Shown: positions 23,790 to 49,018, counted from the stretch's first letter. The stretch is 64,000 nucleotides of DNA from an uncultured virus (IMG/VR IMGVR_UViG_3300035520_000906) (IMGVR_UViG_3300035520_000906), one strand, 5' to 3'. The notes: generated by a model from the letters alone, not told the origin. Made by a program: numbers and translations.

Positions 23790-24143
23790 TTAAGTTAATG
23801 AAACTGTATTTTCATCATGCCCATACTTTTTATTTAATTCAACAAGCTCTTTTCTAAACTGCTCTGAACTCAACAACTGCTCAATCATTTCAACCTTAGA
23901 ATAAACTCCTATATAGTCATCAGAAATTGGTGTTGAGTTATATTTTTCTTCATGTTTATCCCATTTCTTACAATCTATTGTATAATATAGTATAAGACTT
24001 TGTGGTAATTCTTTAAAGTATAAAATTACAAAAAATGTTTTATTCAAGGCTTTTAGTGTTACCTTGTATTTCAAATCCTTTGTTAACCCCAATTCTGCCT
24101 CGCTATTAAACAATACTCCTGCTTTCTTAAATCTTAGTTTCAT
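23790..24143 (-). CDS. YSKEE-motif array protein (single unit)
   Basis: PISDDYIGVYSKVEMIEQLL. Confidence 0.7.
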   Translation of the reverse strand: MKLRFKKAGVLFNSEAELGLTKDLKYKVTLKALNKTFFVILYFKELPQSLILYYTIDCKKWDKHEEKYNSTPISDDYIGVYSKVEMIEQLLSSEQFRKELVELNKKYGHDENTVSLT

Positions 24144-24182
24144 ACTTTCTCCTTTACCTTTGACCTAATCTTATTTTATTTC

Positions 24183-24656
24183 CTACTTTATTTTATAAGG
24201 ATATATAGCATCATTATCTTTGTTATTCCGTTTATTTTCCTCTTGTCTCTTCTTTCTTTCTACAAGTAGTTGATATGAATACTTTGATTTTGTTATAGAT
24301 GGATAAAAGATCCCCTCTTTAGTAATCATGTATTCTATTATATCCTCTTTGTCAAACAACTTTATTAAATCATTCTTTACTTCCACTCTCTCATGTATAA
24401 CAGAACTTAATGTTGACAAACTATATTCGTTGTCAGGTTCAAACTGTGTATCACTGTCAAAAACAACAAACATTTTGTCACCAGTACATTCCACATGTAT
24501 TATTGCATTTACTGTTATTGTTGATATTTCGCTGTCCCCACTATATTCTGCCATTACAATGTATTTATCTGCATCTGACTTTCTCTCAGCTTGTGATAAA
24601 TAAACCAAGTCTGTTAATTTCTTTAACATTATTATTTTTATTTCCCCATCGTTCAT
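24183..24656 (-). CDS. YSKEE-motif array protein (divergent)
   Basis: EVKNDLIKLFDKEDIIEYMI. Confidence 0.65.
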   Translation of the reverse strand: MNDGEIKIIMLKKLTDLVYLSQAERKSDADKYIVMAEYSGDSEISTITVNAIIHVECTGDKMFVVFDSDTQFEPDNEYSLSTLSSVIHERVEVKNDLIKLFDKEDIIEYMITKEGIFYPSITKSKYSYQLLVERKKRQEENKRNNKDNDAIYPYKIK

Positions 24657-24659
24657 AAC

Positions 24660-25586
24660 CTAGTCTTCCTTGAGTTTAGTTCTCATTCTAGTAAGTAAGT
24701 CATCAAATATTCTTGTTTCATTTAATAAGCTTACTGCTAATCTATTTCTTGACTTAATGCTATCTACATCATATTCCCTTGCTATTATTTCCATTTTATC
24801 TGTAAGCTCTACTCTTCTGTCTTTAAGTGCTATTCGCTTACTGTCCATATCTCTTATTGCTACACATTTACATTTACATTCAATGCTAATATAACCTTTA
24901 TATAATTGTTTGTCTCTCAATACTACAGGATAATTGATAACATTTTTAAAACTATAATTAAACTCTGCTGTGATATCTATTACATTATTTAAGTAGTATG
25001 CTTCTGCTTGTACTATTGTTTCAGAAGGTACTCTCTTCATAGAATTTCTATCTATGTTAGGTCTTAAATCATAATCCTCAATATCACTTTGTACATTCTC
25101 TATGTTTATATATTCAACTGCTGTTGTAATATATTTATTTCTGAGTTTTAATAGTGAATTTCCAATTACTTCATCCAATAAACCTTTTCTTTTTATTGCA
25201 TCTGTTATAATTTCCTCTTTGCTCAATAATATAAGTTCTGTGTCTGTCACTTTTACTTCTTTGTCACTGAAATAGATTAATTGCAATAGATACATTATTC
25301 TCATGTTGTTTTTCATCAGTATTAAGTCTGACATTAAATGCTCAAATTGGTTAGCTGATACAATAGAATTTCCAACTCTTGACTTTGATACACAAACACC
25401 ACGTTTGATTGTATTTGTGTCTGTATTAATACTTACTGTTGCTATTAAATCTATTTGTCTCTTTATGTATGTAACAACTATACTAACATAATAAATTTCT
25501 ATGTTATTTGTTACATTTCCATCATGTCCTTCTATTTTCTCTATGCTAATCTCTACTTCTTCATCAAAGAACTTATTATCTTGCAT
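24660..25586 (-). CDS. YSKEE-motif array protein (double unit)
   Basis: KVTDTELILLSKEEIITDAI. Confidence 0.75.
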   Translation of the reverse strand: MQDNKFFDEEVEISIEKIEGHDGNVTNNIEIYYVSIVVTYIKRQIDLIATVSINTDTNTIKRGVCVSKSRVGNSIVSANQFEHLMSDLILMKNNMRIMYLLQLIYFSDKEVKVTDTELILLSKEEIITDAIKRKGLLDEVIGNSLLKLRNKYITTAVEYINIENVQSDIEDYDLRPNIDRNSMKRVPSETIVQAEAYYLNNVIDITAEFNYSFKNVINYPVVLRDKQLYKGYISIECKCKCVAIRDMDSKRIALKDRRVELTDKMEIIAREYDVDSIKSRNRLAVSLLNETRIFDDLLTRMRTKLKED

Positions 25587-25590
25587 GTTA

Positions 25591-25743
25591 TCATTTCCTA
25601 TTTTTGTTGTTCATTAGATGTTCTTTCATTGCCTCGTCTATTGCTTGCTGCTGTCTTAACCAGTCTGCTTCCATTTCCTTATCTAGTTCACTTTGTACAA
25701 ATCCACTAACTGGTTCGTGTGTTTCAAAATTATCCTTGTTCAT
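25591..25743 (-). CDS. Small hypothetical protein (50 aa, not in ORF track), no array motif
   Basis: Read by hand: MNKDNFETHEPVSGFVQSELDKEMEADW...NRK*; ATGA overlap with the upstream stop and AAGGAGG RBS. Confidence 0.55.
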   Translation of the reverse strand: MNKDNFETHEPVSGFVQSELDKEMEADWLRQQQAIDEAMKEHLMNNKNRK

Positions 25744-26150
25744 TTCTTTTTCCTCCTTAGTGTATGTGTCATATCTATGAATATGTCTTTTAGTATTACT
25801 TTATTTATCTGAGATGTAATTGCATTTATTTCTTTTCCTAACATGTTCTCTTTTAATATTAGGTTGTTGATTATCTCATCACCAGAATACATCATTGTTG
25901 ATACTGGATTTATTCTTGTTTTAATTATGTTGTCATTAAACTTATTAAGTTGAAAGGATGAAAAGTCGTAATTTCTTATTGCCATTACATATTTTATCTT
26001 TGTTTCTAATATGTCTTCATCTGTTTTAAATATACTTTCACACATCATACTTAATATGTAGTTTTTATAATTAAAAGATATTAGTATACCGTGTATTTCA
26101 TTGTTTAATGCATCAGCTACTACTGTCAATTTTTGTATTTTATCTTTCAT
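25740..26150 (-). CDS. YSKEE-motif array protein (single unit)
   Basis: RINPVSTMMYSGDEIINNLI. Confidence 0.75.
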   Translation of the reverse strand: MKDKIQKLTVVADALNNEIHGILISFNYKNYILSMMCESIFKTDEDILETKIKYVMAIRNYDFSSFQLNKFNDNIIKTRINPVSTMMYSGDEIINNLILKENMLGKEINAITSQINKVILKDIFIDMTHTLRRKKK

Positions 26151-26158: not shown

Positions 26159-26563
26159 CTATCTTAAATCTATGTATAATTGTCTTACTCCTATGTATCC
26201 ATTTTTAAACTTCTCATATAGAATGTTACTCTTACATATTTCGTGTTTTACTATTTCCTCTTTTGTATAAACTGTGAAACTTATTGGATTTAATTCAATT
26301 TGTTCATTGACATTGCTTGCATATTCCAATGTTCTATCTTCATTTTTAACTATGTTTTCTATTCTTGTAGATACTAGTGCTATTTCTAATATGCTTTTAT
26401 TATCTTTAGTTATGAATTTTACACAAAATGTAATGTATATTACATAATCTTCATAACATATATCTCTACATCTATATATTATATCTGCTTGATACCAGTC
26501 TTTATGCACTCTTGCTACATTTATATCTATGTGTTTGATTTCTTCTAATAAGTACTTGTCCAT
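26159..26563 (-). CDS. YSKEE-motif array protein (single unit)
   Basis: ELNPISFTVYTKEEIVKHEI. Confidence 0.75.
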   Translation of the reverse strand: MDKYLLEEIKHIDINVARVHKDWYQADIIYRCRDICYEDYVIYITFCVKFITKDNKSILEIALVSTRIENIVKNEDRTLEYASNVNEQIELNPISFTVYTKEEIVKHEICKSNILYEKFKNGYIGVRQLYIDLR

Positions 26564-26582: not shown

Positions 26583-27011
26583 TTATTTATCGCTGTTTTT
26601 ATCTTTCTTGAATATGATTAGTTTACTAGCTACATAGTTTAAAATAATTACAATTATGTTAGACATTAATTTCCAAATCATTTCGTTCCAATGATTTAGG
26701 TCAACTGCTATATACATAATTACTAAATCTATCAAACCAGTTGTTATTCTGCAAGTAAAAAATGTAACTAATTCATATAATACTTTCTTTACTTCCATTG
26801 ACTTACTGTCAAATACAAATAATTTATTCGTAATAAATGCAAATATTACTGATATAAACCATGCTAGTGCTGTACTTATTACATTTGCTATATGTATTTT
26901 GTCATATAATACATAGTATGTTACTAAGTTTATAATTGTTGTCAGTACTCCAAATATTGCATACATTATAAATGACTTATATTTTAGCAACAGTTCCTTA
27001 ATTTTAATCAT
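26583..27011 (-). CDS. gtrA: GtrA/GtcA family membrane protein (putative lipid-linked sugar flippase)
   Basis: YAIFGVLTTIINL...AWFISVIFAFITNKLFVF...KLMSNIIVIILNYVASKLIIFKK; four TM. Confidence 0.9.
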   Translation of the reverse strand: MIKIKELLLKYKSFIMYAIFGVLTTIINLVTYYVLYDKIHIANVISTALAWFISVIFAFITNKLFVFDSKSMEVKKVLYELVTFFTCRITTGLIDLVIMYIAVDLNHWNEMIWKLMSNIIVIILNYVASKLIIFKKDKNSDK

Positions 27012-27396
27012 ATTCTTCTATCCCCTCTTTATCCCCAAGAATATAGACTGTCCTATGTACGTTCCAATTTTTCTTTTCACAGTATTCATCCATTATCTTT
27101 ATTGACTTATCAAATATGTCTGTTTTATTTACTATTTCTTTTATGATTTCCTCCTTGGAGTAAACCATAGTTTCAATGCTAGGTATTTCATAAATATGGT
27201 TACTGCTAAAACAAAAAGTTGTTTTTTTATAATTAACTGATGTTCTGCAACTATAACTATATTCAACTCTATCGTCAAAAAAATAGAAATGCATGTAAAA
27301 TGTTAGTACTCTATGTGAAGGAACTTCATATCCTTGTGTTACTAACATATATGAATTATTTTTTCCTTTTGATATATTGCTGACCACTATTTCCAT
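27004..27396 (-). CDS. YSKEE-motif array protein (single unit)
   Basis: EIPSIETMVYSKEEIIKEIV. Confidence 0.8.
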   Translation of the reverse strand: MEIVVSNISKGKNNSYMLVTQGYEVPSHRVLTFYMHFYFFDDRVEYSYSCRTSVNYKKTTFCFSSNHIYEIPSIETMVYSKEEIIKEIVNKTDIFDKSIKIMDEYCEKKNWNVHRTVYILGDKEGIEEYD

Positions 27397-27477: not shown

Positions 27478-27813
27478 TTATTTCATGTATTCTTCTATTT
27501 TAGACTTGATTTCATCTAATATATTATCATTTTTCAAAATGTGTCTTATGTATTCTTCTTTACTATACAATGCTAGTTCAACTATATTTATGTCTAATAT
27601 TGAATTTACTGTTATACTTCTATCTAATGGTAATAATCTTGAATTGAATTGCCACAGTGGTTCATAATATATTGAGTAAACTAAACGATTTATGTTATTT
27701 CCCAGAGAAAACAAAAATTTGATTTCGAGTGATGTGTCTTCGCCTTTAACTTTTGTTCTTACAATAACTCTGTATTTGTCAATATCTGTATTTTCAAAGC
27801 TACTTATTATCAC
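27478..27813 (-). CDS. YSKEE-motif array protein (single unit)
   Basis: DINIVELALYSKEEYIRHIL. Confidence 0.8.
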   Translation of the reverse strand: MIISSFENTDIDKYRVIVRTKVKGEDTSLEIKFLFSLGNNINRLVYSIYYEPLWQFNSRLLPLDRSITVNSILDINIVELALYSKEEYIRHILKNDNILDEIKSKIEEYMK

Positions 27814-28545
27814 TCAATGAACCTCCACTTTACTACTTAACAAATCAATATCATTTTCAATCTGCTGTGTAGCATCCTCAAATATGTTATTTTTACTAAG
27901 ATAGTCTAGTATCAATTCTGCATAGTCAACAAACTCTTCATGACCTTTTATATCTCTTTCCTTGATTGTACGTTTTAAGTTAATGTACATATATTTTGTT
28001 TTCACATAACCATTATATATAATAGCATATCCATTACTATTACAAAATGGCATGTAGAATGTAAGTACTGCTGTTAATATATTTCCCTTATAGTCACCCT
28101 CAGCATATAGTCTGTATGTCTTATCTTTTGCAAAGTTATATAGTGCTCCTTTAGCAGGCATTATACTTGTCACATCAAACTCTGTATTTGATGCTTTGAA
28201 CTTTTTAAGATTGTTTAACTTAATTGTAGCTTTGTTAATTGCTTCTATTACTATGCTATCATTATCAAGTAGAATTTTTTCTAACAATTCTTTCTTTGAA
28301 TACATCATTAACTCAATGTTTGATATATTAAACTCTGGATATTTGTCTATACTTACCAATACAAAACCAATGGTACTTGCTATTTGTATATATTTACACT
28401 TAATACTATTATTGTCCTCAAAATCAAACTTTAATATAGCTGTACTGTCTCCTACTACATCATCATGTGATAGATGAATTTTAGTTAATGTTTCATTTGA
28501 GTTAAGTTGTATTATATCCAATATATTGAGTTTATCTATTTCCAT
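27814..28545 (-). CDS. YSKEE-motif array protein (double unit)
   Basis: NISNIELMMYSKKELLEKIL. Confidence 0.8.
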   Translation of the reverse strand: MEIDKLNILDIIQLNSNETLTKIHLSHDDVVGDSTAILKFDFEDNNSIKCKYIQIASTIGFVLVSIDKYPEFNISNIELMMYSKKELLEKILLDNDSIVIEAINKATIKLNNLKKFKASNTEFDVTSIMPAKGALYNFAKDKTYRLYAEGDYKGNILTAVLTFYMPFCNSNGYAIIYNGYVKTKYMYINLKRTIKERDIKGHEEFVDYAELILDYLSKNNIFEDATQQIENDIDLLSSKVEVH

Positions 28546-28551: not shown

Positions 28552-29307
28552 TTATTCCTTTGCTCTTATGTCATTTCTAAATTGATGCATTCTTCTTAGT
28601 AAATATTTACTAACCTTTCCATAAATTATGAATGAGTTTATTAGCTCTTCATCAGTGTCTATATTGTGTTCCTCTATAAAATCTTTGTTAATTTGACATG
28701 TTTGCTCATTTATTTGTACTGATTTTAAGTCTGTGTATAGTGCTTCGATTAAACTTGTATGTGATACTTGTATAACTTCATCTTGATTTGTTCTTGACAG
28801 TAGCATGTTGATTGTTACTTTTATATAGTTGCTTGTTATAGTTACTTTGTATACTCCTTCTTTAGTTACTGCTCTTTCTATATTTACCATTGCCGTATCT
28901 ACATCGTTTATAACAACCATGAAATTTGTTATTGTTTTCTCATAAATTCTCATTAGTTCATCATCTAATATTCTATCTTCTAGTATCAATTTTCTTATGT
29001 ATTCTTCTCTGGAGTACATAAGCATTGCTACTATATTTGCTGTTATTTTGTTCTCTTTTAAATCATAACTTTGATGATATCCACCTAATGTAATATCAGA
29101 TGGGTCATTATGCAGTGAACCATAATTATATTTAGTTACTACTCCACCATATGTAATCTCTATATTATTGTCTGTTGTCTCAAACTTTACTTCCATTATA
29201 ATATTTAATGCTGAACTTTTAATATCTGTACTTAACATTACTGTGTACTCATTTTCTGTACACAGTAGTATTCTTTCAATATGGATAATTGGTTTGATTT
29301 TTTCCAT
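28552..29307 (-). CDS. YSKEE-motif array protein (double unit)
   Basis: TANIVAMLMYSREEYIRKLI. Confidence 0.8.
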   Translation of the reverse strand: MEKIKPIIHIERILLCTENEYTVMLSTDIKSSALNIIMEVKFETTDNNIEITYGGVVTKYNYGSLHNDPSDITLGGYHQSYDLKENKITANIVAMLMYSREEYIRKLILEDRILDDELMRIYEKTITNFMVVINDVDTAMVNIERAVTKEGVYKVTITSNYIKVTINMLLSRTNQDEVIQVSHTSLIEALYTDLKSVQINEQTCQINKDFIEEHNIDTDEELINSFIIYGKVSKYLLRRMHQFRNDIRAKE

Positions 29308-30179
29308 GTTTCCTCCAATAAGTCTTGCTCTTTCTGTATTTTAATTTTCAGGTCATCACTTATTTCTGATGGTCTATTATGTTTTCCCAGATATTTTGTG
29401 AATATTTCCTCATGAGCATCTATTACTTTTTCTGCTTGTTCAATAACATTTTTAAAAAGATATCCTTGTTTAATTAATTGCTCTATTACATAAATTCTTT
29501 TATCGCGTGGATTATTCACTGTTATTTCATCTGGAATTGTCACGTATTCTGTACATTGATCCCAGTAATCTTTTTTACTTGCTATGCTATAACCAACTCT
29601 TCCTAGAGTAAAATCATCAAAAGGTGCACAAATGTTTTGTCTTACCCATGCTCCCTCTCTATAATTTACAACTTTACCACGCTTTCCTATAAGTCTTATA
29701 TCATTATATAACTCTCTTATTATTGCTCCTTTATAACTTCCCTGTATGCTTACACCAAATTCTGTATAGTCTTTATTTTTTATGTATATGTAGTCTATAT
29801 ACACACTTGTTTTACTTATCTTAAACATCTTTCTGTAAAGTTGTTTTCTTACATGTCTCTCAGCTTTTCTTAAGTATACACTATTTAGTAGCTTGTTTTG
29901 TATTATTTCTTCTTTGCTATAAACAAGTAAATCCATATCAGTTATATCTTCTATACAAGGTGTAATTGAAATCTTAGATGCTTGATCTCTAGACTTTCCA
30001 GCTAAGAATGTTTTATATGTATACAATAGTCTATTGTTTGTTACATCAAGTTTCACTTTTATTTTACTATGTATATTTATATTTTTAACTGCTGCATTAT
30101 TATATATTGTACTATACATGTAAACTGTGTATTCATTTCCATTATCATTTGATATTCTTATTTTTCTTTCCAGTGACAT
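29238..30179 (-). CDS. YSKEE-motif array protein (double unit)
   Basis: DITDMDLLVYSKEEIIQNKL. Confidence 0.8.
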   Translation of the reverse strand: MSLERKIRISNDNGNEYTVYMYSTIYNNAAVKNINIHSKIKVKLDVTNNRLLYTYKTFLAGKSRDQASKISITPCIEDITDMDLLVYSKEEIIQNKLLNSVYLRKAERHVRKQLYRKMFKISKTSVYIDYIYIKNKDYTEFGVSIQGSYKGAIIRELYNDIRLIGKRGKVVNYREGAWVRQNICAPFDDFTLGRVGYSIASKKDYWDQCTEYVTIPDEITVNNPRDKRIYVIEQLIKQGYLFKNVIEQAEKVIDAHEEIFTKYLGKHNRPSEISDDLKIKIQKEQDLLEETWKKSNQLSILKEYYCVQKMSTQ

Positions 30180-30936
30180 TGTGTCTCCTTAGTTTATCTG
30201 GCCAGTTATCTACTGCTTTCTCCATTTCAATTACTGACTCATTATATAAATATCCTCGTTTTAATAACTTTTCTATTGTCAATGACATTTTATGTAACTT
30301 GTCTCTTTCAATGAGTTCATCAGGTACTTCCACTTCTGTAAGTGTGCACCCATCACCGAAATCAGTATATTTACCTTGTTTGTCAAGCACTGTCACTTCA
30401 TTTAGGTATTTTAATTTTCTGAATTTATTATCTGTGAATATTATTGGAACTATCTTACTTTGAATTGCGTATCCCTTGTATAAACCTATGAGGTATGCCA
30501 TGTATTGCTTTGCTGGTTTATTCTTATAAATTCTGAACTCTTTTATGTTTGCTATAAAGAATGTTGTGTTATGTATCTTGAAACTTCTATTTTGTTTGTA
30601 TCTTTTATATACCTTTCTTACATTTTTAGATATTGTTTTATCATTAAGTAATATGTGCTCAATTATTTCTTGCTTTGTGTACATTAACAATTCTAAATTG
30701 TTAACTTTAACTTCTCTAGGTTGTTCCAAAATAAATGACTTTTCCCATACTGTTCCCATATGTGTTTTAGACTTATATACTAATGATGTATCTCCATTTT
30801 TATCAGTAACAAATTTTACTCTTGATATTGTTACCACTTGTCCCTTGTAGTTGTTAGAAACTAGCATGTCTATTATCTTTGCTATGTAAAATTCATCATG
30901 ACAATATATGTCTATTGTTCTTCTATAATCTTCCAA
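30145..30936 (-). CDS. YSKEE-motif array protein (double unit)
   Basis: KVNNLELLMYTKQEIIEHILLND. Confidence 0.8.
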   Translation of the reverse strand: MEDYRRTIDIYCHDEFYIAKIIDMLVSNNYKGQVVTISRVKFVTDKNGDTSLVYKSKTHMGTVWEKSFILEQPREVKVNNLELLMYTKQEIIEHILLNDKTISKNVRKVYKRYKQNRSFKIHNTTFFIANIKEFRIYKNKPAKQYMAYLIGLYKGYAIQSKIVPIIFTDNKFRKLKYLNEVTVLDKQGKYTDFGDGCTLTEVEVPDELIERDKLHKMSLTIEKLLKRGYLYNESVIEMEKAVDNWPDKLRRHNVTGKKNKNIK

Positions 30937-30938: not shown

Positions 30939-31694
30939 TTATGTCCTCTTAATGTTTTCTGATGTTTTCCACTCTTCAGCTTTCTTGTCCATCTCTGCTT
31001 CCATCTGTGTTATAGCTTCTTTAAAAAGTAATTGCTGTTTTAATGCCTGTTCAACTACCTTATATCTGTTTTTCTCTTTTGGGTCTATCTTGACTTTTAC
31101 TGTTTTGTACTTACCATCTCCAAACTCATAGAAGCCTCCTTTTCTACCTACTACTATCACACCATCTATATATGTTATGCTAGCTAAACCATTGGAAAAC
31201 CTTATTCTTGTATGAGTGTTTTGAACTGTATTTCCTCTGTATTTACCAATTATATACACTGCTGTTACTGTTCCATTATAATCATTATTCATATAATCTT
31301 TAAATATATTATCAATCCAGAAGGTTGTATTACTTATTTTGAAACTATGTGTCTTTTTATATTTAATGTATACTTTGTAAATATCAGCTGTTATATCTTC
31401 ATCGTTTAACAGTATATCTGTTATTATTTCGTCTTTTGTATACATTAAAAGTGATAAATCATTTATAGGTACTGTTTTATATCTACTTGCTACATATACT
31501 GGTTTCCATTTTACTGCTGACCTTACTTTATATTTATAAACTAATGTTGTTTTATTGTTATCATCTATGTTAAAATGTAAATGTACAAATGTTGATACCG
31601 CTATATTATGCCCAACATGATCCCACATATCAGCTTCATAATAATTTTCTTTTTTAGCCCTTTGAATGTTAATGCTACGCTTACTATTTACCAT
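30939..31694 (-). CDS. YSKEE-motif array protein (double unit)
   Basis: PINDLSLLMYTKDEIITDILLND. Confidence 0.8.
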   Translation of the reverse strand: MVNSKRSINIQRAKKENYYEADMWDHVGHNIAVSTFVHLHFNIDDNNKTTLVYKYKVRSAVKWKPVYVASRYKTVPINDLSLLMYTKDEIITDILLNDEDITADIYKVYIKYKKTHSFKISNTTFWIDNIFKDYMNNDYNGTVTAVYIIGKYRGNTVQNTHTRIRFSNGLASITYIDGVIVVGRKGGFYEFGDGKYKTVKVKIDPKEKNRYKVVEQALKQQLLFKEAITQMEAEMDKKAEEWKTSENIKRT

Positions 31695-33328: not shown

Positions 33329-33728
33329 GATATACTTTCAGCACCATTTTATCCATGTGCTTTACCATTTTAGGATGATAAATTGCTCTTTCAATTAGTT
33401 CCGTTTTATTATAAAGCATTATTTCTGTATCTGACAAAGTTATTGTATATCTATGTAATAAATTTGTAAATGAGATTAATTCTTTAATAGTAAGTGTTTC
33501 ATGATAATGACTCCCCAGAACATTAAATATGAACCCTACTGGCTTACATGTTACTTTGTTTCTTTTACCAAGCTTTAAATTTACTGAAAAATGAATCATT
33601 GATGACGAATCTTTATATTCTGCATCAACTGCTATGATTATGTTCTCATTTTTTGTGTTTCCCATACTCATTAAGTCCATTATTGTATAATCTATGTTAT
33701 TTGATGAAATAAAATGCTTGTAATCCAT
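33300..33728 (-). CDS. YSKEE-motif array protein (single unit)
   Basis: TLSDTEIMLYNKTELIERAI. Confidence 0.8.
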   Translation of the reverse strand: MDYKHFISSNNIDYTIMDLMSMGNTKNENIIIAVDAEYKDSSSMIHFSVNLKLGKRNKVTCKPVGFIFNVLGSHYHETLTIKELISFTNLLHRYTITLSDTEIMLYNKTELIERAIYHPKMVKHMDKMVLKVYHDYESTQNR

Positions 33729-37081: not shown

Positions 37082-37094
37082 TTCTGTTCTACCC

Positions 37095-41266: not shown

Positions 41267-41303
41267 GATTTATTTACTCCCTGTATTATCTATCTTTTTC
41301 ATT

Positions 41304-42197
41304 TTACTCCGATGTATATGTGCCATTATCTATTTCTCTCATTTTTTCTTCAAATATAGAATCTACTATTCCATACTGTTCAATTAGTCTATCCGTCAAA
41401 ACTGATGTATTAAATATTGAAGTTTCTAGTTTACTTAGTTTAATATTTTTAACTTCGCCAGCTAATGAAAAGTAATTACTTAATTTATTATATGTTAAAG
41501 GTGCATAATTTAAACTACTTTCATCACCTTTAATAAACTCTAGTAAAACATACTGTCTTATTACATAATCTCTGTATATTTTAGTAACTCCAACTGTATA
41601 TAATTTATTGTTAGCTGATACTCTTGTGTATCCTTCTATGTTCTCTAACCCACCTACTCTATTGCATCCTATATTAATTATATGATATTTATTATAGTCA
41701 ATAAATCCGTTTGCTTTTACAGCGTATTTTCTACAATTATTATGTGCAAAGAATATATAATCACCGTAACTGTTAGTTTCACAACACTTTTTTAGATAGT
41801 CTGTTGCCCTGTCTAACACTTCTGATATGTACTCTATTTTTTCTCCTATATTTCCTTTCTGTTCTATGACTCTTCTTATATAATCTTCTGGAGAATACAT
41901 CATCTTTGCCAGTGTTTCATTATAATCATTTATATCAACATTAATTATCTCTGGTAACATACAATAGCTTAAATAGATTCTGTCTGTGTCAACTAATACT
42001 TCAAATATAAACTCTATTGTACTTTTATCATTATTACTATGTACAAATATACCTATTCTTATAGGATCCTCTTCGTATTTTCCTTCGTAACCCAGTAAAA
42101 GTCCTATGCCATCACAGTAATCTTTGTATAAACTATTATGTGTTCCTACATAATGAAACTCTGTAATCTTCATAATTTTACAATTTTCCTCATACAT
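41304..42197 (-). CDS. YSKEE-motif array protein (double unit)
   Basis: TLAKMMYSPEDYIRRVIEQKGNI ... YGIVDSIF. Confidence 0.8.
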   Translation of the reverse strand: MYEENCKIMKITEFHYVGTHNSLYKDYCDGIGLLLGYEGKYEEDPIRIGIFVHSNNDKSTIEFIFEVLVDTDRIYLSYCMLPEIINVDINDYNETLAKMMYSPEDYIRRVIEQKGNIGEKIEYISEVLDRATDYLKKCCETNSYGDYIFFAHNNCRKYAVKANGFIDYNKYHIINIGCNRVGGLENIEGYTRVSANNKLYTVGVTKIYRDYVIRQYVLLEFIKGDESSLNYAPLTYNKLSNYFSLAGEVKNIKLSKLETSIFNTSVLTDRLIEQYGIVDSIFEEKMREIDNGTYTSE

Positions 42198-42987
42198 ATA
42201 GCTGTTTGTCTATTGCATCCATTTGTTTAATAAACTCTTCATCTACGATGTGATAATCTGTTACTAGCTTGTCCAATAAATTTGTTAATGTAAATATCTC
42301 AACATATAAGTTAGGTATTGTAAGTATCTTTATATTACTGTGTGCTACTTGTCCACCCTCTGATTCACTATTTATTATATGTGTATTTGTTGAGTACATA
42401 AAGTCTGTTACTTCTTTTTTCTCTACAATATCAACTGTTGTGAATGTTTCTATTTTGTATTCTTTATAGTTCTTATATGCTGATACAATATATTTTCCTG
42501 CAAATGACCTTATATTTCCTATGTCTACATATAAGTCCAATGGATTAATACCTAAATATTTATCTGCACTTATGTTTAAAGTATCACTTATAATACCATA
42601 CATTATGCATTTCTTAATTTCCTCATCAGCTTTATCCAGTGCAAATCCTATGTTTTCTATCTTTTCCTGTATCTTTCCTCTTGTCTTTATTATGTAGTGT
42701 ATATAATCTTTGAGCGGATACATCATTTTTACTATGTTTTCTTCATCACTAGTGTTGCCAATCTCTATTGTTTCTGGAATTGAAAAATAATCTATTACTA
42801 CACCAGCAGTTTTTCTGTATACTTGTATCAAATAATCTATTTTGTTTTCATTATAATAGACTGTTATTACAGTAAAATCCAGTTTTATATCCTTATAATT
42901 CCCAGTATATGTTGCTGGTAATAAAAGTCCATATCCATTATAACCTCTATCATATGCTCCAATAAATTTTATATCTGTGATCGGCAC
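42190..42987 (-). CDS. YSKEE-motif array protein (double unit)
   Basis: NIVKMMYPLKDYIHYIIKTRGKI ... GINPLDL ... YHIVDEEF. Confidence 0.8.
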   Translation of the reverse strand: MPITDIKFIGAYDRGYNGYGLLLPATYTGNYKDIKLDFTVITVYYNENKIDYLIQVYRKTAGVVIDYFSIPETIEIGNTSDEENIVKMMYPLKDYIHYIIKTRGKIQEKIENIGFALDKADEEIKKCIMYGIISDTLNISADKYLGINPLDLYVDIGNIRSFAGKYIVSAYKNYKEYKIETFTTVDIVEKKEVTDFMYSTNTHIINSESEGGQVAHSNIKILTIPNLYVEIFTLTNLLDKLVTDYHIVDEEFIKQMDAIDKQLYV

Positions 42988-43847
42988 TACTTTTCCTCCA
43001 GGATTCTATCACAATAATTCATTTGTTTCTGATAAATCTCATCTGCTACACCATATACTTCTATCAATCGTTCAAATATATCTCCATCTGTGAATCTATG
43101 TCTTTCAATATTTTTCAGAGTAATATATAAATTTTCGTCTGATATTAAGTTATCATACATATCAATTTCAGAAGTATATTCATATTTTATTATAACTTTA
43201 TCAGTTGTTTCTTCTAATATTTTAAATGTAAAATTAGCAATTATTTTAATACCTTTATATATTTTATATGTTGGTACTTCATAAATTTCATTATCTTCAA
43301 AATACTTATCATAGTCTATCTCTATTTGTAGCTTATTTGTATCATCAAATTTGAACATGTCTATGAAGTAATCATCCCTTGTGTTCCTTCCACCCTCAAA
43401 TTTAGTTACTGTTTCTGATGGTTTATTTTCTGCTATACATCTGTCTATCTCTATTTCTGCTGAATGTATTATTGAACAAACTTTGTCTAATTTTGCTTGA
43501 ATGTTTCCTCTTTTTTCTATGATGTATCTAATATAATCTGAAAAACTATACATCATTTTAAGTAGTAGTTCTTCGTCTTCATTATTGTTCAGTATAAGTG
43601 TTTCTGGTTTTGTACAGTACATCCAGCTTGACCACTTCCATTTCAAAGTTGCACCAAACATAAAATCCAGTGATTTGTCTTCTTTATGATAAAGTGTATC
43701 TACTCTAAATGATATTGGTTGATTATCATAGCTGCCTTCATAATTTATTGATACGCTTTTTCCATACCTACAATCTATTGATGCTGTTCCGTTACCATAT
43801 TTTCCACTAGGTACTACGCTTACTAATGTTAAGTCTTCAAATTTCAT
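42987..43847 (-). CDS. YSKEE-motif array protein (double unit)
   Basis: LLLKMMYSFSDYIRYIIEKRGNI ... YGVADEIY. Confidence 0.8.
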   Translation of the reverse strand: MKFEDLTLVSVVPSGKYGNGTASIDCRYGKSVSINYEGSYDNQPISFRVDTLYHKEDKSLDFMFGATLKWKWSSWMYCTKPETLILNNNEDEELLLKMMYSFSDYIRYIIEKRGNIQAKLDKVCSIIHSAEIEIDRCIAENKPSETVTKFEGGRNTRDDYFIDMFKFDDTNKLQIEIDYDKYFEDNEIYEVPTYKIYKGIKIIANFTFKILEETTDKVIIKYEYTSEIDMYDNLISDENLYITLKNIERHRFTDGDIFERLIEVYGVADEIYQKQMNYCDRILEEK

Positions 43848-43853
43848 CCTTGA

Positions 43854-44216
43854 TTATTTCCTCTTATAGTGCTCACATTTATACTCGTACAATCTTTTGC
43901 ACATATTTTCCATTTCAATTTTAATGATACATTCGTTTAATATCTCTGTTATTAAGCTTTCTCCATCGTATATCATTAATTTTAATGGTAAGTCTTTTAT
44001 CTTAATTGTTTTTTCAGGTGTATCTCCTTTAATCTCAGGTGTTGATATTATAAACCCACTTATCTTATAAGAAACTGATTCTGTCTCTGCATGTATAGCA
44101 AGTGCAACTGCTATACTTATCAATGATTTATTATATTCAAATATAATAATCGACTTATGTTTTCCAGTTTCTTCAGATGATACTTCATCTTGCATTACAC
44201 AGTATTTGTCTGTCAC
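43854..44216 (-). CDS. YSKEE-motif array protein (single unit, divergent)
   Basis: DLPLKLMIYDGESLITEIL. Confidence 0.7.
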   Translation of the reverse strand: MTDKYCVMQDEVSSEETGKHKSIIIFEYNKSLISIAVALAIHAETESVSYKISGFIISTPEIKGDTPEKTIKIKDLPLKLMIYDGESLITEILNECIIKIEMENMCKRLYEYKCEHYKRK

Positions 44217-44923
44217 TGCTTGTTTTCCTCCAATGTTGTGAATGCTTTCACAAATATTCCATCTAGTAAGTCTTTTAATATTACTAGATTAAACACAAGT
44301 TCATTATAATCAAGTGATTGTTGCTGTTGATTATTTAATATGTATGAATAATCATAGCTGTGATTACTTAATCTAAACTCTTGTTTATTGTTTAATGTTT
44401 TACATGTACAATCATAATCTACTATTAGCTTCTGCTTACTTTTATCATGATTGAAATGAAAGTTTGCTTCTAAATCTAATGCAATCTCATTATGTGCTAC
44501 CGCTGCTAATATTTTACAGTTTGTTCCATTTATTATTTTATCTGACAATCTAATTCTAAATCTCTTAGGATTACTACTGCACATGTATTCTAATCTAAGT
44601 TCTATGTCTTCAAATATCTGTTGCTCAAATATTAAATTTCTTATGATTTCTTCCTTTGTATATAATGACAATGTATCTGTGCTAATATCTGGAATTATTT
44701 GCATATCAGTTTCAAATACACTTTTATTTTCTAGTTTATCTATGAGTGTAAAATTACCTCTATAACTTATTGATATTATATCATCTGTTATAATAAACTT
44801 AAACTCTGTTTCGAATATTTTGTCAAATTGATTACTACTGCTTGTTAATTTTACATCGAAGTCATCTTCTGTAATGTTCGAGTAATACCTGTCTATTGAT
44901 ATGTTTGTATTCTCTTTATTCAT
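44213..44923 (-). CDS. YSKEE-motif array protein (double unit)
   Basis: DISTDTLSLYTKEEIIRNLI. Confidence 0.8.
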   Translation of the reverse strand: MNKENTNISIDRYYSNITEDDFDVKLTSSSNQFDKIFETEFKFIITDDIISISYRGNFTLIDKLENKSVFETDMQIIPDISTDTLSLYTKEEIIRNLIFEQQIFEDIELRLEYMCSSNPKRFRIRLSDKIINGTNCKILAAVAHNEIALDLEANFHFNHDKSKQKLIVDYDCTCKTLNNKQEFRLSNHSYDYSYILNNQQQQSLDYNELVFNLVILKDLLDGIFVKAFTTLEENKQ

Positions 44924-45026
44924 TGTATAACCTCTTTTTAGTATTGTATATCTATTAAAATTTTTACTAATTACTTATCATACAAAACTGTTTGTTACAT
45001 TGTTACCTAATGTTTTGTATTTATCA

Positions 45027-45551
45027 ACTAGTCTATTATATTCTATGTATTATTAATTTTTCTAACTAGTATACCAAATACATCATAGTTGTTATTTGAA
45101 TTTTTCTCACTAGTCAGTTTTTTATAGTATTTATGTCTATGAAATTTAGATGCTATTTTAATTTTACTAACTAGTATATTGAAAATACTATATTCGCTAT
45201 TTGAATTTTTCTCACTAGTCAGTTTTCTCACTATCTGAATGTTTTGTGTTAGTTATATATGCTATGTTTGAATTACTATTGTTGACTATACATCATACTG
45301 ATACTATTGTAATACATACTGTTTTTTCGTGATTATTAGTATGTATTACTTTATTACTATAATGATATAATTTGAAATGACTTTTTAGTTTTCATCACTA
45401 GTATATCAAAAATTATATAGTTGCTTCTCTAATTTTTCTCACTAGTTAATTTTTTACACTAATTATGTTTTGAATTTTGATATGCATTTGTATATTTTCT
45501 CACTAGTATATTGAAAACTATATAGTTGTTATGCAATTTTTTCTCACTAGT
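45027..45551. repeat. Intergenic phased ACTAGT-core repeats
   Basis: ACTAGT at 45027, 45065, 45109, 45170, 45214, 45397, 45441, 45502, 45546 (spacings 38,44,61,44,183,44,61,44). Confidence 0.9.
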
Positions 45552-45567
45552 ATATTTTTCTTATTTT

Positions 45568-45933
45568 CTACTGTAATATACAATTATTAGTTACTGCATT
45601 TACTTTTTCTACTGCTTCATCTAATATGCAGTCTAATTCTCTATCTGTATTTACCATTTTGTTTACAAGCTCTTTCTTTGAATAAACTGCCAATTCAGTG
45701 TCAGACAACTTTGTCTCTGCTGTACCAAACATATTATCTAAGCCCTTATGATTTATAAGTACTCTAAATTTACATTCTAATACTGTTGTATTATTCTCTT
45801 CTTTAAAGTAAAACTGTCCAAACAATTCGATTACTACATGACCTTTTCTGTCTACTACCTCTGATATTACAAAACTCTTACCCCCGTCATCTACTCTTAT
45901 CACGTATTCATATTTTCCCTCTGTCTTATTCAC
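45568..45933 (-). CDS. YSKEE-motif array protein (single unit)
   Basis: KLSDTELAVYSKKELVNKMV. Confidence 0.8.
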   Translation of the reverse strand: MNKTEGKYEYVIRVDDGGKSFVISEVVDRKGHVVIELFGQFYFKEENNTTVLECKFRVLINHKGLDNMFGTAETKLSDTELAVYSKKELVNKMVNTDRELDCILDEAVEKVNAVTNNCILQ

Positions 45934-46311
45934 TTATTTTCTAACCTCCAATTCTTCTTTTACCTGTTCTATTAGTGAATCAAATTGTTCATCAAATATT
46001 CTTTGTTTGTTGACTATCTTGTCTATCAGTTCTTCCTTTGTGTATAATGCTAATTCAGTATATAATACTTGTATACTTCCATCATTCTTATGTGTTTTAA
46101 GCTGTGAATTTACTAATACTAAAAATTCATAATGATACCTAAATAATGCACTATTGTTTAGATTTTCAAAATATACTGTTGATGTAAATTCAATGAAGCA
46201 ACTTCTATCTACTGAAACGCCAGCAGATACAATAAAATGACCATTTTGTCCCTGTACTATTCTATATGTTAAATCAGCTGCTTTCATACTGTTTACTTCC
46301 TTTATTAACAT
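45934..46311 (-). CDS. YSKEE-motif array protein (single unit)
   Basis: QVLYTELALYTKEELIDKIV; likely start MKAADL at 46287. Confidence 0.8.
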   Translation of the reverse strand: MLIKEVNSMKAADLTYRIVQGQNGHFIVSAGVSVDRSCFIEFTSTVYFENLNNSALFRYHYEFLVLVNSQLKTHKNDGSIQVLYTELALYTKEELIDKIVNKQRIFDEQFDSLIEQVKEELEVRK

Positions 46312-46646
46312 TATAAATTTCGTTCATCTAACAAATTGTTTATCTGTTTATCTAATACTCTATCCTTGTTTACTAACTTTTTAACTAGTTCTTTCTTTGA
46401 ATAAAGAGCTAACTCCACATCTGATACTTGCAAAACACCTGCTGCTCTATTGCTGATTACTGAAGGTTCTAGTGATTGTAATAAGATTCCATATGATAAT
46501 ACAATATCTTTATCTATTTCCTTAAACTCTAAGTTTAAGTTTATATACAATAAACTTGTGTTGTCACTACCTTGATAAAAAGCTTGCATGTGAAACAAAT
46601 TTTTATCCATAAAGTTCAATTTAAAATTTATATCTTCTGCTTTCAT
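46311..46646 (-). CDS. YSKEE-motif array protein (single unit)
   Basis: QVSDVELALYSKKELVKKLV. Confidence 0.8.
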   Translation of the reverse strand: MKAEDINFKLNFMDKNLFHMQAFYQGSDNTSLLYINLNLEFKEIDKDIVLSYGILLQSLEPSVISNRAAGVLQVSDVELALYSKKELVKKLVNKDRVLDKQINNLLDERNL

Positions 46647-46671
46647 TATTTATGCCCTCTATATTTATTAT

Positions 46672-47151
46672 CTAAAATACTCCAAACTCATATGTGTATC
46701 CTTTTTCGTTACAATATTTTTCTACTTTGCTAAATTCATCTTTTACATGTAAACTGAAATCTGAAAAGTTAATTTTGTCATATATTATACGTTGCATTAA
46801 ATCAAATTTTGAGTATAACAGTAATTCTATGTTGTTTATTTCTAGTTTATTCTTTAATACTTTTGCATGCCTACAAAATTCATTGAACTTATCTATATCT
46901 TCAAAGTCTAATCCAACTCCAAGATAGTTTGGGTCTGTTAAGTATACTGTGTATTTTATTATTGACTTGTTTTCATTGCTATCTGAGAACTCAAATCTCA
47001 CATAAAACTTTGCAGGAAATTTATCACCAGTGCATGTATTTGATATATTTATATTTTGTACATAATATATTCTTACTATGTATATAAATACATTGTCTGC
47101 TAGCTTTCTTTTATAATTTATATCAACCTTTGCACTGTATTCCTGCTTCAT
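46672..47151 (-). CDS. YSKEE-motif array protein (single unit)
   Basis: EINNIELLLYSKFDLMQRII. Confidence 0.8.
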   Translation of the reverse strand: MKQEYSAKVDINYKRKLADNVFIYIVRIYYVQNINISNTCTGDKFPAKFYVRFEFSDSNENKSIIKYTVYLTDPNYLGVGLDFEDIDKFNEFCRHAKVLKNKLEINNIELLLYSKFDLMQRIIYDKINFSDFSLHVKDEFSKVEKYCNEKGYTYEFGVF

Positions 47152-47155
47152 ATGG

Positions 47156-47602
47156 TTATTTATATTCCTCCCCTACGTACACTGGTATTATATACTTTTT
47201 TACTATATTAGTTACCAACTCTTCTTTTGTATACAACATAGCTTCAATGTCACTTATTTTTGTCTGTCCACTAACATTTCTATCTGACTTCTTTAAAGAT
47301 AATAAATTAAGTGTATATGCATCATAGGTTACTATTGTGTTATATTTATCAAATAGCTTATGTTTATCTGTAAACTTTACTTGTCCATATAATTCTAATG
47401 TGAAAAGTCTAAAGATGTCATCAGTGTCATCAATATAATATGATGATTCAGTGCTCTCATATGTTATGTATGCTTCAAAATTATACAGCATATCTCCAGG
47501 TTTTAATTTGGATCTTAATAAAATACCTTTTGTAACTTTATTTATATTTAGTACTTCTACATTAGTTGGTTTGTATAATACTGGTTTTGTTTTGTATCTC
47601 AT
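47156..47602 (-). CDS. YSKEE-motif array protein (single unit)
   Basis: KISDIEAMLYTKEELVTNIV. Confidence 0.8.
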   Translation of the reverse strand: MRYKTKPVLYKPTNVEVLNINKVTKGILLRSKLKPGDMLYNFEAYITYESTESSYYIDDTDDIFRLFTLELYGQVKFTDKHKLFDKYNTIVTYDAYTLNLLSLKKSDRNVSGQTKISDIEAMLYTKEELVTNIVKKYIIPVYVGEEYK

Positions 47603-48286
47603 TTAGTTAGACTCTTTCTCCATAAGATAATTCTTAATCTCTGGGAGTATCCAAATCTCAATTATACGTTTCATATTAGCTTCAAGTGTGATATCCTTCA
47701 ATTTCCATCCGTATAAGCTATATTCCTTACTGTCTTTTGTAAATGTCTCCAATTTCTCATTATCTTTACTAAATTCTGCTGTATATTCATATGTAATAAA
47801 TGGTTTATCTAATTTAGTATTTGCTATATTAAATGATACTGTTAAGTCTATTGCTATTCCGTTATGTTGAGTGGTTATTTTATATGTTTTATTATCATCA
47901 TCTACTGTGTCTATGCTTCTTATTATATAGTTATTTATAGATTCTTTATCGTTAAACATTTCTATTATACTGTTCAATAAATTATTCTTATTGAACAGAT
48001 ACTCAACTAACTCTGGTCCATCATACATTAATGCTTCGAGAGCTGTTGCCTCCATAGTGTTTAACTCTAAGTAATACTCTTTTTCTATTACATCTTCAGT
48101 GTGTTCTTTCTTATCTTTAATAAGCATTACTTCACCATAGTATTCTATCTTGTTATATTCTTTTTGGCTCGTTGTTACATCTAAAAATATAGTATTACCA
48201 TTATATTTAGTGTCTGTCTCTAATGTCATTCTGCCTCTATAAATTCCTTTTCCTACATTTGCAGTCATTCTTAATGTTTTTTCCAT
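47603..48286 (-). CDS. YSKEE-motif array protein (double unit)
   Basis: EATALEALMYDGPELVEYLF; alignable by eye with 48308..49018. Confidence 0.75.
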   Translation of the reverse strand: MEKTLRMTANVGKGIYRGRMTLETDTKYNGNTIFLDVTTSQKEYNKIEYYGEVMLIKDKKEHTEDVIEKEYYLELNTMEATALEALMYDGPELVEYLFNKNNLLNSIIEMFNDKESINNYIIRSIDTVDDDNKTYKITTQHNGIAIDLTVSFNIANTKLDKPFITYEYTAEFSKDNEKLETFTKDSKEYSLYGWKLKDITLEANMKRIIEIWILPEIKNYLMEKESN

Positions 48287-48307
48287 ACTATCTCCCTCAA
48301 TCTTTGT

Positions 48308-49018
48308 TTATGGTCGTGTACTCATTACAACTTCGTTTTGAATAAAACCATTATCTATGTATGCCTGTATACTTGGAATGATAAATACTTCAAATATATG
48401 TCTTAATCTGTCATTTACACTGTACAGTCCTACCTGTTCCTCTGACATATAAAATTCTTTATTATCAATTTTATGCGTACTTAGTAACTTTCCGTTTTCT
48501 TTAATCTCTGCTATGTACCCATAACAAATTGTTCTGTCATCTGAATAAAATTTACTTGTATCATAATATGATACAATATCTATCCCCATTCCTTTATAAT
48601 ATGTTACTATCCTACATGTTGCTGTATTTTCATCAATCATGTGGTTTTCTTTCATTTCATATCTATTTATTGTATCAGTTTCAAAAAGCTTCATAAACTT
48701 ACTTATCATGTACTCATCATCCAATGCACGTTTAATCAGTTCTTCTCTGCTATAAACTGTTCTTTCTAAGTCTGATATAGGTACTCTTGTTGGATGAATA
48801 AAGTACTCTTTTAATATATTATCTGCATTTTGACCAGTAGCTGTTTTATCCAATAATGATACTTGTCCATGATATCTTATATCAGATTCATTAATTTGAG
48901 CAATAAGGTCAAATACTACAATATATCCGCAAACATAAATATATGGTCGTATCTTTACTCTATATTTATCAGGTCCAAGATACTTATTTGCGCTTACTGT
49001 GACTTTACTAAAGCTCAT
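48308..49018 (-). CDS. YSKEE-motif array protein (double unit; first gene of the array)
   Basis: PISDLERTVYSREELIKRAL; AAGGAGG RBS. Confidence 0.8.
   Translation of the reverse strand: MSFSKVTVSANKYLGPDKYRVKIRPYIYVCGYIVVFDLIAQINESDIRYHGQVSLLDKTATGQNADNILKEYFIHPTRVPISDLERTVYSREELIKRALDDEYMISKFMKLFETDTINRYEMKENHMIDENTATCRIVTYYKGMGIDIVSYYDTSKFYSDDRTICYGYIAEIKENGKLLSTHKIDNKEFYMSEEQVGLYSVNDRLRHIFEVFIIPSIQAYIDNGFIQNEVVMSTRP

Follow-up and report, generated by a model that had tools for sequence, protein, structure and literature searches.

A 25-kb tandem array of 37 deeply diverged paralogs on a large AT-rich mobile element: a candidate repertoire of small cytosolic binders

A stretch of 64,000 nucleotides from the uncultured virus record IMGVR_UViG_3300035520_000906 (hereafter the window, meaning the whole stretch of DNA that was analysed) carries on its minus strand, between positions 23790 and 49018, a tandem array of 37 genes that belong to one protein family. 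The window is part of a large (at least 142 kb), AT-rich mobile element, probably of a gut Firmicute. A first survey of the same DNA, referred to below as the original prediction, had described a single-family array of 37 genes united by a short 'YSKEE' motif, and this observation is confirmed here. Judged from sequence comparison, the array appears to be an old, lineage-specific tandem expansion of one small scaffold protein. The function that we favour, with a probability of roughly 0.4, is that of a diversified set of cytosolic binders serving host takeover or anti-defence.

On the minus strand of the array region there are 40 non-nested open reading frames (ORFs) of at least 50 amino acids (aa), and 39 of them are credible as genes; the remaining one, a 62-aa ORF at 45043-45231 that reads through the repeats of a 645-bp gap, is unlikely to be a real gene. 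The minus strand carries every credible gene of the window. Coding sequence makes up 96.6% of the region, intergenic gaps are mostly 0-40 nt and most neighbours abut or overlap, as had been claimed, except at one real gap of 645 bp (44924-45568). The 37 member ORFs are all intact and tightly packed, and together they span 25 kb, or some 18% of a contig no shorter than 142 kb, at a GC content of 26-29% compared with 30-35% upstream of the array. Alignment to the family hidden Markov model (HMM) places the motif in 37 of the 40 ORFs (the exceptions are 26583-27011, 25591-25743 and 45043-45231), which bears out the count of 37 among 39 credible genes once the ORF in the gap is dropped. The motif tyrosine stands at residue 79-124 in the array members. 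The proposed boundaries hold for the array itself, and a 38th family member lies outside them, at 8079-8801, with its tyrosine at residue 172.

Membership was assessed by all-vs-all phmmer comparison, an iterated HMM, subgroup HMMs and hhalign, with composition-matched shuffled decoys. Comparison by phmmer at E < 1e-3 joins 29 proteins in a single component, and the iterated HMM gathers 34 members (33 in the region plus 8079-8801) with none of 1,780 shuffled decoys at E < 0.001. With the four weakest candidates left out of the N-module HMM, core members scored 37.8 bits or more and the best decoy 13.9; in this shuffle check no decoy reached the members' scores. Of the weakest candidates, 38671-39312 joins via the subgroup-B HMM (E 7.6e-6, 22 bits against 9.9 for the best decoy), and 39422-40597 joins by hhalign against subgroup B (85% probability, E 6e-6, 78 columns). 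The gene at 24183-24656 is borderline, with an HMM E of 0.005-0.008, equal to the best decoy, and an hhalign E of 0.0012 over 30 columns. The gene at 40619-41266 is linked solely by its motif and its resemblance to the C-terminal half of 39422-40597 (E 7e-11 with phmmer and BLAST), and its module comparison by hhalign gives E 0.046 over just 24 columns. By profile statistics, 35 array members can be called firm and two probable (24183-24656 and 40619-41266), with one more outside the array. A strict regular expression for the motif matches 15 of the 38 family proteins, none of the 51 other window proteins and one of 760 shuffled family sequences. The proposal of one real, deeply diverged paralog family is thus supported by phmmer, the iterated HMM and hhalign alike.

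The family is built from a single kind of module. Of the array genes, 17 encode short proteins (111-215 aa) with one module and 20 encode long ones (227-391 aa) with two, giving up to 57 modules in the array. Since the profiles of the N-module and the C-module match across the whole module (hhalign probability 91%, E 1.2e-6, 100 columns), the long genes are internal duplications. The gene at 34267-34725, a single C-type module that still carries the N-type motif, bridges the two types. AlphaFold2 modelled the single module 46311-46646 with a predicted local distance difference test score (pLDDT) of 89.0 and a predicted template modelling score (pTM) of 0.77, placing strands at residues 9-12, 17-25, 32-44, 47-58 and 66-73 and helices at 76-81, 84-94 and 99-109. 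In the predicted module, two helices, one short and one long, back an antiparallel sheet of five strands, and the model of the two-module protein 37095-37862 (pLDDT 87.3, pTM 0.83) repeats the same pattern of strands and helices twice over. The structural check suggested with the original prediction, run on these two members, found the same module pattern in both and, on the other side, no Foldseek match in the PDB or BFVD at E <= 0.001 (best E 5e-3). A search of the ESM Atlas for look-alikes of a two-module member gave no usable match.

The first survey had recognised no described family, and this is supported by the libraries searched. Pfam gave no match above its curated cut-off for any array member or for 8079-8801; PHROGs gave none for any member, NCBIfam none for three members, PADLOC none for ten members, and a profile search of PDB sequences none at E <= 10. 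The sub-threshold Pfam rows at E <= 0.01 are TetR (31721-32467), Alp7A C-terminal plus DUF1216 (38671-39312) and GD_N (47603-48286). Among 1.84 billion representative proteins, a profile search returned 42 matches at E <= 0.001, all of 54-313 aa and without fusion to another domain. Twenty-nine of these are the window's own proteins (at least 99.5% identity), from a 141,860-bp contig. The 13 external proteins lie on contigs 1-19 kb long, and each is clearly orthologous to a different window paralog, with 34-84% identity (median 44%).

The window paralogs themselves are at most 36% identical to one another, and for 23 of the 38 members the closest paralog is no more than two genes away, compared with a mean of 10% and a maximum of 29% of members in 2,000 random draws. 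Because close paralogs are adjacent and the external orthologues are one-to-one, the family arose by tandem duplication that predates the split from the related element or elements, and was then retained copy by copy. Among the 20 largest of the 55 families of DNA repeats in the array, all but one lie inside genes, the largest covering the codons of the helix motif, and the exception lies in the 645-bp gap; such repeats are faint echoes of the motif codons and point to no recent duplication or gene conversion. The orthologues P0043 (of 42987-43847) and P0011 (of 37095-37862) are each on a contig of 6,299 bp, and the two genes span 6.75 kb here; if both share one contig, the related element would lack at least one of the six genes between them.

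Further searches for relatives gave nulls, each within its own scope. One member and two small alignments found no related DNA in IMG/VR, and two scans of a metagenome contig collection and a search of a genome contig collection found no family DNA. A tblastn search with one member against phage and plasmid records gave no match. In a word-indexed protein search, the family alignment returned just four window proteins and 39422-40597 returned just itself. The family was not found in five records with distant relatives of the large ATPase described below (four metagenome-assembled genomes (MAGs) and one 284-kb viral record), which are incomplete and distantly related. No sequencing run, RNA included, was listed as containing positions 34001-44000, and a literature search on tandem paralog arrays with an anti-defence role in phages, or on the motif string, gave nothing relevant.

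Copies of the module differ in net charge, in loops and, above all, on the open sheet face. Along the strands, a hydrophobic face alternates with a variable one. Column identities computed over the 13 orthologue pairs are 44% for exposed strand (32 columns), 49% for loop (25), 56% for exposed helix (18), 60% for strand core (12) and 64% for helix core (9); exposed strand differs from exposed helix with p 0.016 and from strand core with p 0.009. The isoelectric point (pI) of members ranges from 4.7 to 9.8, with 24 of 38 acidic (pI <6) and 10 of 38 above 8. These column identities, the alternation of faces and the spread of pI support the proposed conserved scaffold with variable surfaces. The idea of DNA mimicry by uniformly acidic proteins was rejected on the same spread. 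Tyrosine makes up 6.9% of family residues and 4.6% of those of the other window proteins.

The members are predicted to be cytosolic, non-enzymatic and not secreted. Membrane-like segments are absent from all of them (Kyte-Doolittle means over 19 residues peak at 1.75), compared with 23 of the 51 other window proteins at or above 2.0. Met1 is the sole invariant column and the motif tyrosine (Tyr 82) the sole nearly invariant residue besides, hence there is no catalytic signature. The statement that no member has a signal peptide, transmembrane segment or catalytic motif is in agreement with these values.

We favour a binder repertoire because several features coincide: an origin by tandem duplication, deep divergence in which each copy was retained, a scaffold that is rigid, non-enzymatic and cytosolic, variability of face and charge, tight co-directional packing and a mobile-element setting. 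The genes would be co-expressed in one or two long operons of the same direction, each protein would bind and block or redirect a different cell protein, and jointly the proteins would form a host-takeover or anti-defence repertoire, much as the multigene families of large eukaryotic DNA viruses do on one fold. Several observations weigh against such a function. No member matched a known anti-defence, immunity or defence family in the searches above, and no relaxase, origin of transfer (oriT), capsid or terminase was found in the 64-kb window. Known anti-defence islands consist of many unrelated genes with fast turnover, whereas here one family is kept one-to-one between related elements. The alignments behind the AlphaFold2 models consist almost wholly of paralogs of the same element. 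Structural resemblance to PsiB, AcrIF24, the TriTu immunity protein and type III chaperones (Z 4.9-5.7) is at the level of a common arrangement. Finally, conservation is somewhat higher on the exposed helix than on the sheet face, and a shared partner is thus conceivable.

The closest parallels in organisation come from viruses of animals. The Bcl-2-like proteins of poxviruses and the MGF360/505 proteins of African swine fever virus (ASFV) are many tandem, non-enzymatic paralogs with a shared fold and very low identity, and each is thought to meet a different host factor. It is conceivable, if somewhat doubtful, that the array is a bacterial mobile-element counterpart of these families, in which a novel two-layer scaffold would have diversified into up to 57 modules in 37 genes, each disabling a different host defence or stress protein. 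The poxvirus and ASFV families have known host targets; the array sits on a bacterial element and is unrelated to them in sequence, so the likeness is one of organisation and not of membership.

The main rival to the binder repertoire is a polyimmunity array, in which each paralog would neutralise a different variant of one fast-diversifying interbacterial toxin family, such as toxins passed between gut Firmicutes, and the element would thereby protect its host against many competitors. A typical immunity protein is small, cytosolic and non-enzymatic, has an alpha+beta structure and is encoded in a co-directional array on a mobile element; the window encodes two SUKH proteins, and the module has a weak fold match to the TriTu immunity protein. 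The orphan-immunity clusters rAID-1/AID of gut Bacteroidales reach up to 31 genes and more than 16 kb, and they combine numerous unrelated immunity families with intergenic repeats and an XerD-like recombinase at the 5' end (10.1101/471110). As described there, those clusters are like our array in being long, co-directional series of genes for small cytosolic proteins, located on the mobile DNA of gut bacteria and lower in GC than the surroundings. The features that define rAID-1 are absent, however: the 5' neighbour is a J-domain protein (49262-49882), the sole tyrosine recombinase (16821-17420) lies 6.4 kb beyond the 3' end, there are no repeated intergenic sequences among the 20 largest repeat families, and a single family is present instead of a mixture. 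Moreover, no array member has a Pfam match to an immunity family, with none of the three weak sub-threshold rows (TetR, Alp7A C-terminal/DUF1216 and GD_N) being one, Pfam and NCBIfam scans found no toxin domain in the window, and the TriTu score lies within the range of common arrangements. We therefore regard polyimmunity as unlikely.

Plasmid leading-region anti-defence islands offer another comparison. They are defined relative to oriT, encode ArdA, PsiB, single-stranded DNA (ssDNA)-binding protein SSB, anti-CRISPRs and methyltransferases, and use ssDNA promoters (PMC11541004). The likeness to the array lies in clustered small genes on one strand of a transmissible element, many of them without a known family. 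No ArdA, PsiB, SSB, KlcA or anti-CRISPR family was found by Pfam, or by PADLOC for ten members.

The original prediction had read the motif as part of a constant docking module. In the model weighed here, it would connect every member to one shared partner (the element's FtsH, its large ATPase, or its J-protein together with DnaK), while cargo would be picked by the variable part. The motif is indeed the best-kept feature of the family. Its serine is drawn from both codon boxes (15 TCN and 6 AGY overall; the codons AGC, AGT, TCA and TCC reported for four genes are all correct), so conservation acts on the protein. The better retention of exposed helix than of exposed strand is a small point in favour of docking, and a J-protein, an M4-type peptidase and FtsH are encoded directly upstream on the same strand.

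In both models, however, the tyrosine and serine of the motif are the two non-helical residues right before the long helix, and the DSSP helix begins one residue past the serine. Counted over 38 modules, position 0 (N') is Tyr in 35, position +1 (N-cap) is Ser, Thr, Asp or Asn in 36, position +4 (N3) is Glu or Asp in 37 and position +5 (N4) is hydrophobic in all 38; the outward-facing positions +2 (N1, Lys in 21) and +3 (N2, Glu in 17) vary. The short helix ahead of the motif starts with a second [S/N/T/D]-x-x-[E/D] box at positions -7 to -4. The predicted pattern of hydrophobic residue, N-cap, two free positions, acid and hydrophobic residue fits a helix N-capping box with a hydrophobic staple. 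Because the kept positions match exactly this box and staple, 'YSKEE' is more likely a structural signature of the fold than a docking site, and the docking module as first conceived is not upheld. C-type modules likewise keep the fold and the acidic cap without the tyrosine, given which the tyrosine may do something beyond capping. There is a precedent in the glutathione transferases, for which the N-capping box, along with the hydrophobic staple, is described as a folding motif: h-S-x-x-[D/E]-h at the start of a core helix is the best-kept feature of a very diverged superfamily and is needed for folding (PMC3319563). The glutathione transferase fold and family are unrelated to those of the array, and the comparison bears on the role of the motif alone. 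Taken together, a shared docking partner for all members seems to us quite improbable.

Another reading takes the modules to be self-assembling or nucleic-acid-binding proteins, which would pair through their sheets and build a structure, or bind RNA or DNA as regulators. The fold comparison gives this some colour. With an exhaustive aligner, the best row for the single module is the dimerisation domain of capping protein (4akr_D, Z 8.7, root-mean-square deviation 3.4, 100 of 110 residues), with a second capping-protein row at Z 7.5 (7a0h_B); by the aligner's own calibration, a best Z of 7-8 is typical of models without a true match. The next rows (Z 5-6.5) include many levivirus coats, DR_1245, type III chaperones, FP domains, PsiB, AcrIF24 and the TriTu immunity protein. 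Levivirus coats score Z 5.0-5.7, DR_1245 Z 6.0-6.8, and SycN-YscB, SicP and AvrPphF ORF1 Z 4.6-4.9; identity to capping protein and to the coats is 7-13%. For the predicted module these scores describe shape alone, namely a sheet covered by helices on one side and open on the other, and homology is not claimed.

The dimerisation domain of actin capping protein (CapZ alpha/beta) and the levivirus coats likewise have a five-stranded antiparallel sheet with C-terminal helices across it. Both form two-fold pairs with a ten-stranded sheet, which the two-module genes of the array parallel, and two-module proteins look like fused pairs. The difference is that Z is moderate and no sequence relation was found by the PDB profile search. 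Type III secretion chaperone-like and YbjN-like proteins follow the order alpha-beta3-alpha-beta2-alpha; the order predicted for the array module is five strands followed by helices. A homodimer prediction for the single module scored 0.00, which is evidence neither for nor against pairing. Weak Foldseek rows including PUR and Whirly repeats, and the ten basic members, would suit binding to nucleic acid; against this stand the lack of a Foldseek match at E <= 0.001, Z values near 8 that are typical of unrelated models and the 24 acidic members, and the need for 37 diverged copies of a structural protein or regulator is hard to see. We give this reading little credence, slightly less than docking. 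Decaying or neutral duplicates without present function, which the very low identity between copies might suggest, are extremely improbable in view of 37 intact, tightly packed ORFs, 13 of them with retained orthologues, and a hydrophobic core pattern and capping motif that are kept in confidently modelled proteins.

The members of the array and the features next to it are listed in Table 1.

Table 1. Family members and associated features of the window, with motif strings in brackets and percentages giving identity to the external orthologue unless stated otherwise.
Feature	Coordinates	Strand	Description	Basis
38th member, outside array	8079..8801	-	240 aa, long insertion (LLYSKEEV, Tyr 172)	HMM E 2.6e-14
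Member	23790..24143	-	117 aa, 1 module (GVYSKVEM, Tyr 81); best-conserved, P0038 84%	Iterated HMM
Probable member	24183..24656	-	157 aa, 1 module (KLFDKEDI)	Borderline HMM, hhalign
Member	24660..25586	-	308 aa, 2 modules (ILLSKEEI)	Iterated HMM
Non-family 50-aa ORF	25591..25743	-	Abuts neighbours	
Member	25740..26150	-	136 aa, 1 module (MMYSGDEI); P0032 62%	Iterated HMM
Member	26159..26563	-	134 aa, 1 module (TVYTKEEI)	Iterated HMM
GtrA-like membrane protein within array	26583..27011	-		Pfam PF04138 E 1.3e-23; PHROG 2224
Member	27004..27396	-	130 aa, 1 module (MVYSKEEI)	Iterated HMM
Member	27478..27813	-	111 aa, 1 module (ALYSKEEY); P0030 38%	Iterated HMM
Member	27814..28545	-	243 aa, 2 modules (MMYSKKEL)	Iterated HMM
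Member	28552..29307	-	251 aa, 2 modules (LMYSREEY); P0024 41%	Iterated HMM
Member	29238..30179	-	313 aa, 2 modules (LVYSKEEI)	Iterated HMM
Member	30145..30936	-	263 aa, 2 modules (LMYTKQEI)	Iterated HMM
Member	30939..31694	-	251 aa, 2 modules (LMYTKDEI); 35% identity to neighbour 30145-30936	Iterated HMM
Member	31721..32467	-	248 aa, 2 modules (ILYTREDI); P0027 55%	Iterated HMM
Member	32471..33328	-	285 aa, 2 modules (MLYEAQEL)	Iterated HMM
Member	33300..33728	-	142 aa, 1 module (MLYNKTEL)	Iterated HMM
Member	33837..34202	-	121 aa, 1 module (MVYSKEEI)	Iterated HMM
Member	34267..34725	-	152 aa, 1 C-type module (MMYTKADI + YHIVDDVF); P0036 41%	E 4.6e-20 to subgroup-B C-module
Member	34744..35484	-	246 aa, 2 modules, subgroup B (MVYSHTEY ... 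YHILD); P0029 34%	Iterated HMM
Member	35465..36310	-	281 aa, 2 modules, subgroup B; P0017 55%	Iterated HMM
Member	36320..37081	-	253 aa, 2 modules, subgroup B	Iterated HMM
Member	37095..37862	-	255 aa, 2 modules, subgroup B; modelled two-module form; P0011 44%	Iterated HMM
Member	37859..38698	-	279 aa, 2 modules, subgroup B	Iterated HMM
Member	38671..39312	-	213 aa, 1 module, degenerate motif (QTRTADEY), basic helical tail	Subgroup-B HMM
Member	39422..40597	-	391 aa; N-module (MMYTWWEY) confirmed; C-terminal half similar to 40619-41266	hhalign
Probable member	40619..41266	-	215 aa (LLYSEKEL); paralog of C-terminal half of 39422-40597	phmmer, BLAST
Member	41304..42197	-	297 aa, 2 modules, subgroup B	Iterated HMM
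Member	42190..42987	-	265 aa, 2 modules (MMYPLKDY)	Iterated HMM
Member	42987..43847	-	286 aa, 2 modules; P0006 + P0043 45%	Iterated HMM
Member	43854..44216	-	120 aa, 1 module (MIYDGESL)	Iterated HMM
Member	44213..44923	-	236 aa, 2 modules; first gene downstream of 645-bp gap	Iterated HMM
Non-coding gap, sole sizeable one in array	44924..45568	-	645 bp, ACTAGTGAGAAAA-like words + 193-nt duplication	
Member	45568..45933	-	121 aa, 1 module (AVYSKKEL)	Iterated HMM
Member	45934..46311	-	125 aa, 1 module (ALYTKEEL)	Iterated HMM
Member	46311..46646	-	111 aa, 1 module; modelled single-module form	AlphaFold2
Member	46672..47151	-	159 aa, 1 module (LLYSKFDL); P0041 41%	Iterated HMM
Member	47156..47602	-	148 aa, 1 module (MLYTKEEL); P0037 39%	Iterated HMM
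Member	47603..48286	-	227 aa, 2 modules (LMYDGPEL); P0042 50%	Iterated HMM
Member, first gene of array	48308..49018	-	236 aa, 2 modules (TVYSREEL)	Iterated HMM
J-domain protein, directly upstream of array	49262..49882	-		Pfam DnaJ E 9.5e-8

The 645-bp gap contains nine minus-strand copies of a ACTAGTGAGAAAA-like word (45058-45551) in addition to its duplication, and by inference it probably has a regulatory role and divides the array into two transcription units. With up to two mismatches, this 13-mer occurs 14 times in the window, compared with 5.8 expected and at most 12 in 100 shuffles, and it may be the element's own promoter or operator word. It also stands at 4783, 5018 and 16380 (minus strand), in intergenic positions upstream of the genes starting at 4711 and 16312. 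Promoter and terminator scans gave counts equal to those of shuffles in this AT-rich DNA, and the plus strand of the gap, folded as ssDNA, was no better than shuffles (z 0.0). Within the array, the GtrA-like gene overlaps the upstream family gene by 8 nt and has no GtrB-like partner in the window; because of this overlap the two genes are probably co-expressed.

Elsewhere the window encodes two SUKH proteins, a BspA-type leucine-rich-repeat lipoprotein, a GNAT acetyltransferase, an R2K ATP-grasp protein, a DUF4869 protein, an insertion-sequence-type zinc ribbon, a short tyrosine recombinase, TatC with two TatA proteins, a J-domain protein, a membrane-anchored M4-type peptidase, a YhaM-like HD protein and a divergent FtsH, the last at most 36.6% identical to plasmid and phage records. 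Searches of the window for transfer RNAs and Rfam families found nothing. The SUKH (SMI1/KNR4) genes lie at 1106-1531 and 2128-2556 (Pfam E 1e-10 to 6e-11), with small ORFs of unknown function between them; the SUKH superfamily is usually read as toxin immunity. The Tat export set (TatC 19017-19763; TatA-like 19804-19980 and 20112-20405) stands beside two further genes: 18749-19051 encodes 100 aa with an N-terminus resembling a Tat signal, and 18263-18727 encodes 154 aa that end in a Cys-rich run of the CxGxC type. The tyrosine recombinase has 199 aa and is essentially a catalytic domain alone (Pfam Phage_integrase at residues 7-179; PHROG 216, E 2e-49). A small membrane-protein ORF at 7557-7856 holds three exact tandem copies of the 7-residue unit ARVKSVT, and 54956-56641 and 56738-56965 form a related pair of acidic, low-complexity membrane proteins (linked by phmmer).

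At the end of the window, 59924-63952 encodes a 1,342-aa protein that had been called a VirD4-like ATPase. Walker-type motifs are present in the sequence, Pfam gives no match, and language-model look-alikes fall in the HerA/FtsK/TraG group (score 0.92-0.94, a lead only), so the earlier name stands at best as a look-alike of that superfamily by language-model features. Homologues at 45-70% identity occur on contigs of 146 kb to 721 kb, distant ones (25-29%) in MAGs of gut Clostridia and Bacilli, and a further one (32%) in the 284-kb IMG/VR record. Among the distant loci L002, L003 and L006, gene order is common to L002 and L003, and in L002 the homologue lies beside a ParA gene. The protein looks like an uncharacterised branch of HerA/FtsK/TraG ATPases marking a group of very large elements.

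The protein family of the array is new, while its overall kind, a lineage-specific multigene expansion on a mobile element, is known. To our knowledge, single-family tandem expansions of such scale are rare on bacterial mobile elements, and this array is among the larger ones known. The family is absent from the curated libraries searched and, among 1.84 billion representative proteins, occurs just in the array's element and close relatives. Methodologically, it illustrates that when a family has diverged, its most conspicuous short motif may serve folding and not mark a functional site. If the members are indeed binders, the array would supply numerous natural versions of a small scaffold that is predicted with confidence, each differing in its surface. 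New inhibitors of bacterial defence or toxin proteins could then be drawn from it, and it would serve as a natural experiment in fold diversification. Should the array be a counterpart of the poxvirus and ASFV families, about a sixth of the element would be a library of new inhibitors on a common, designable fold, and single modules might also pair in different combinations.

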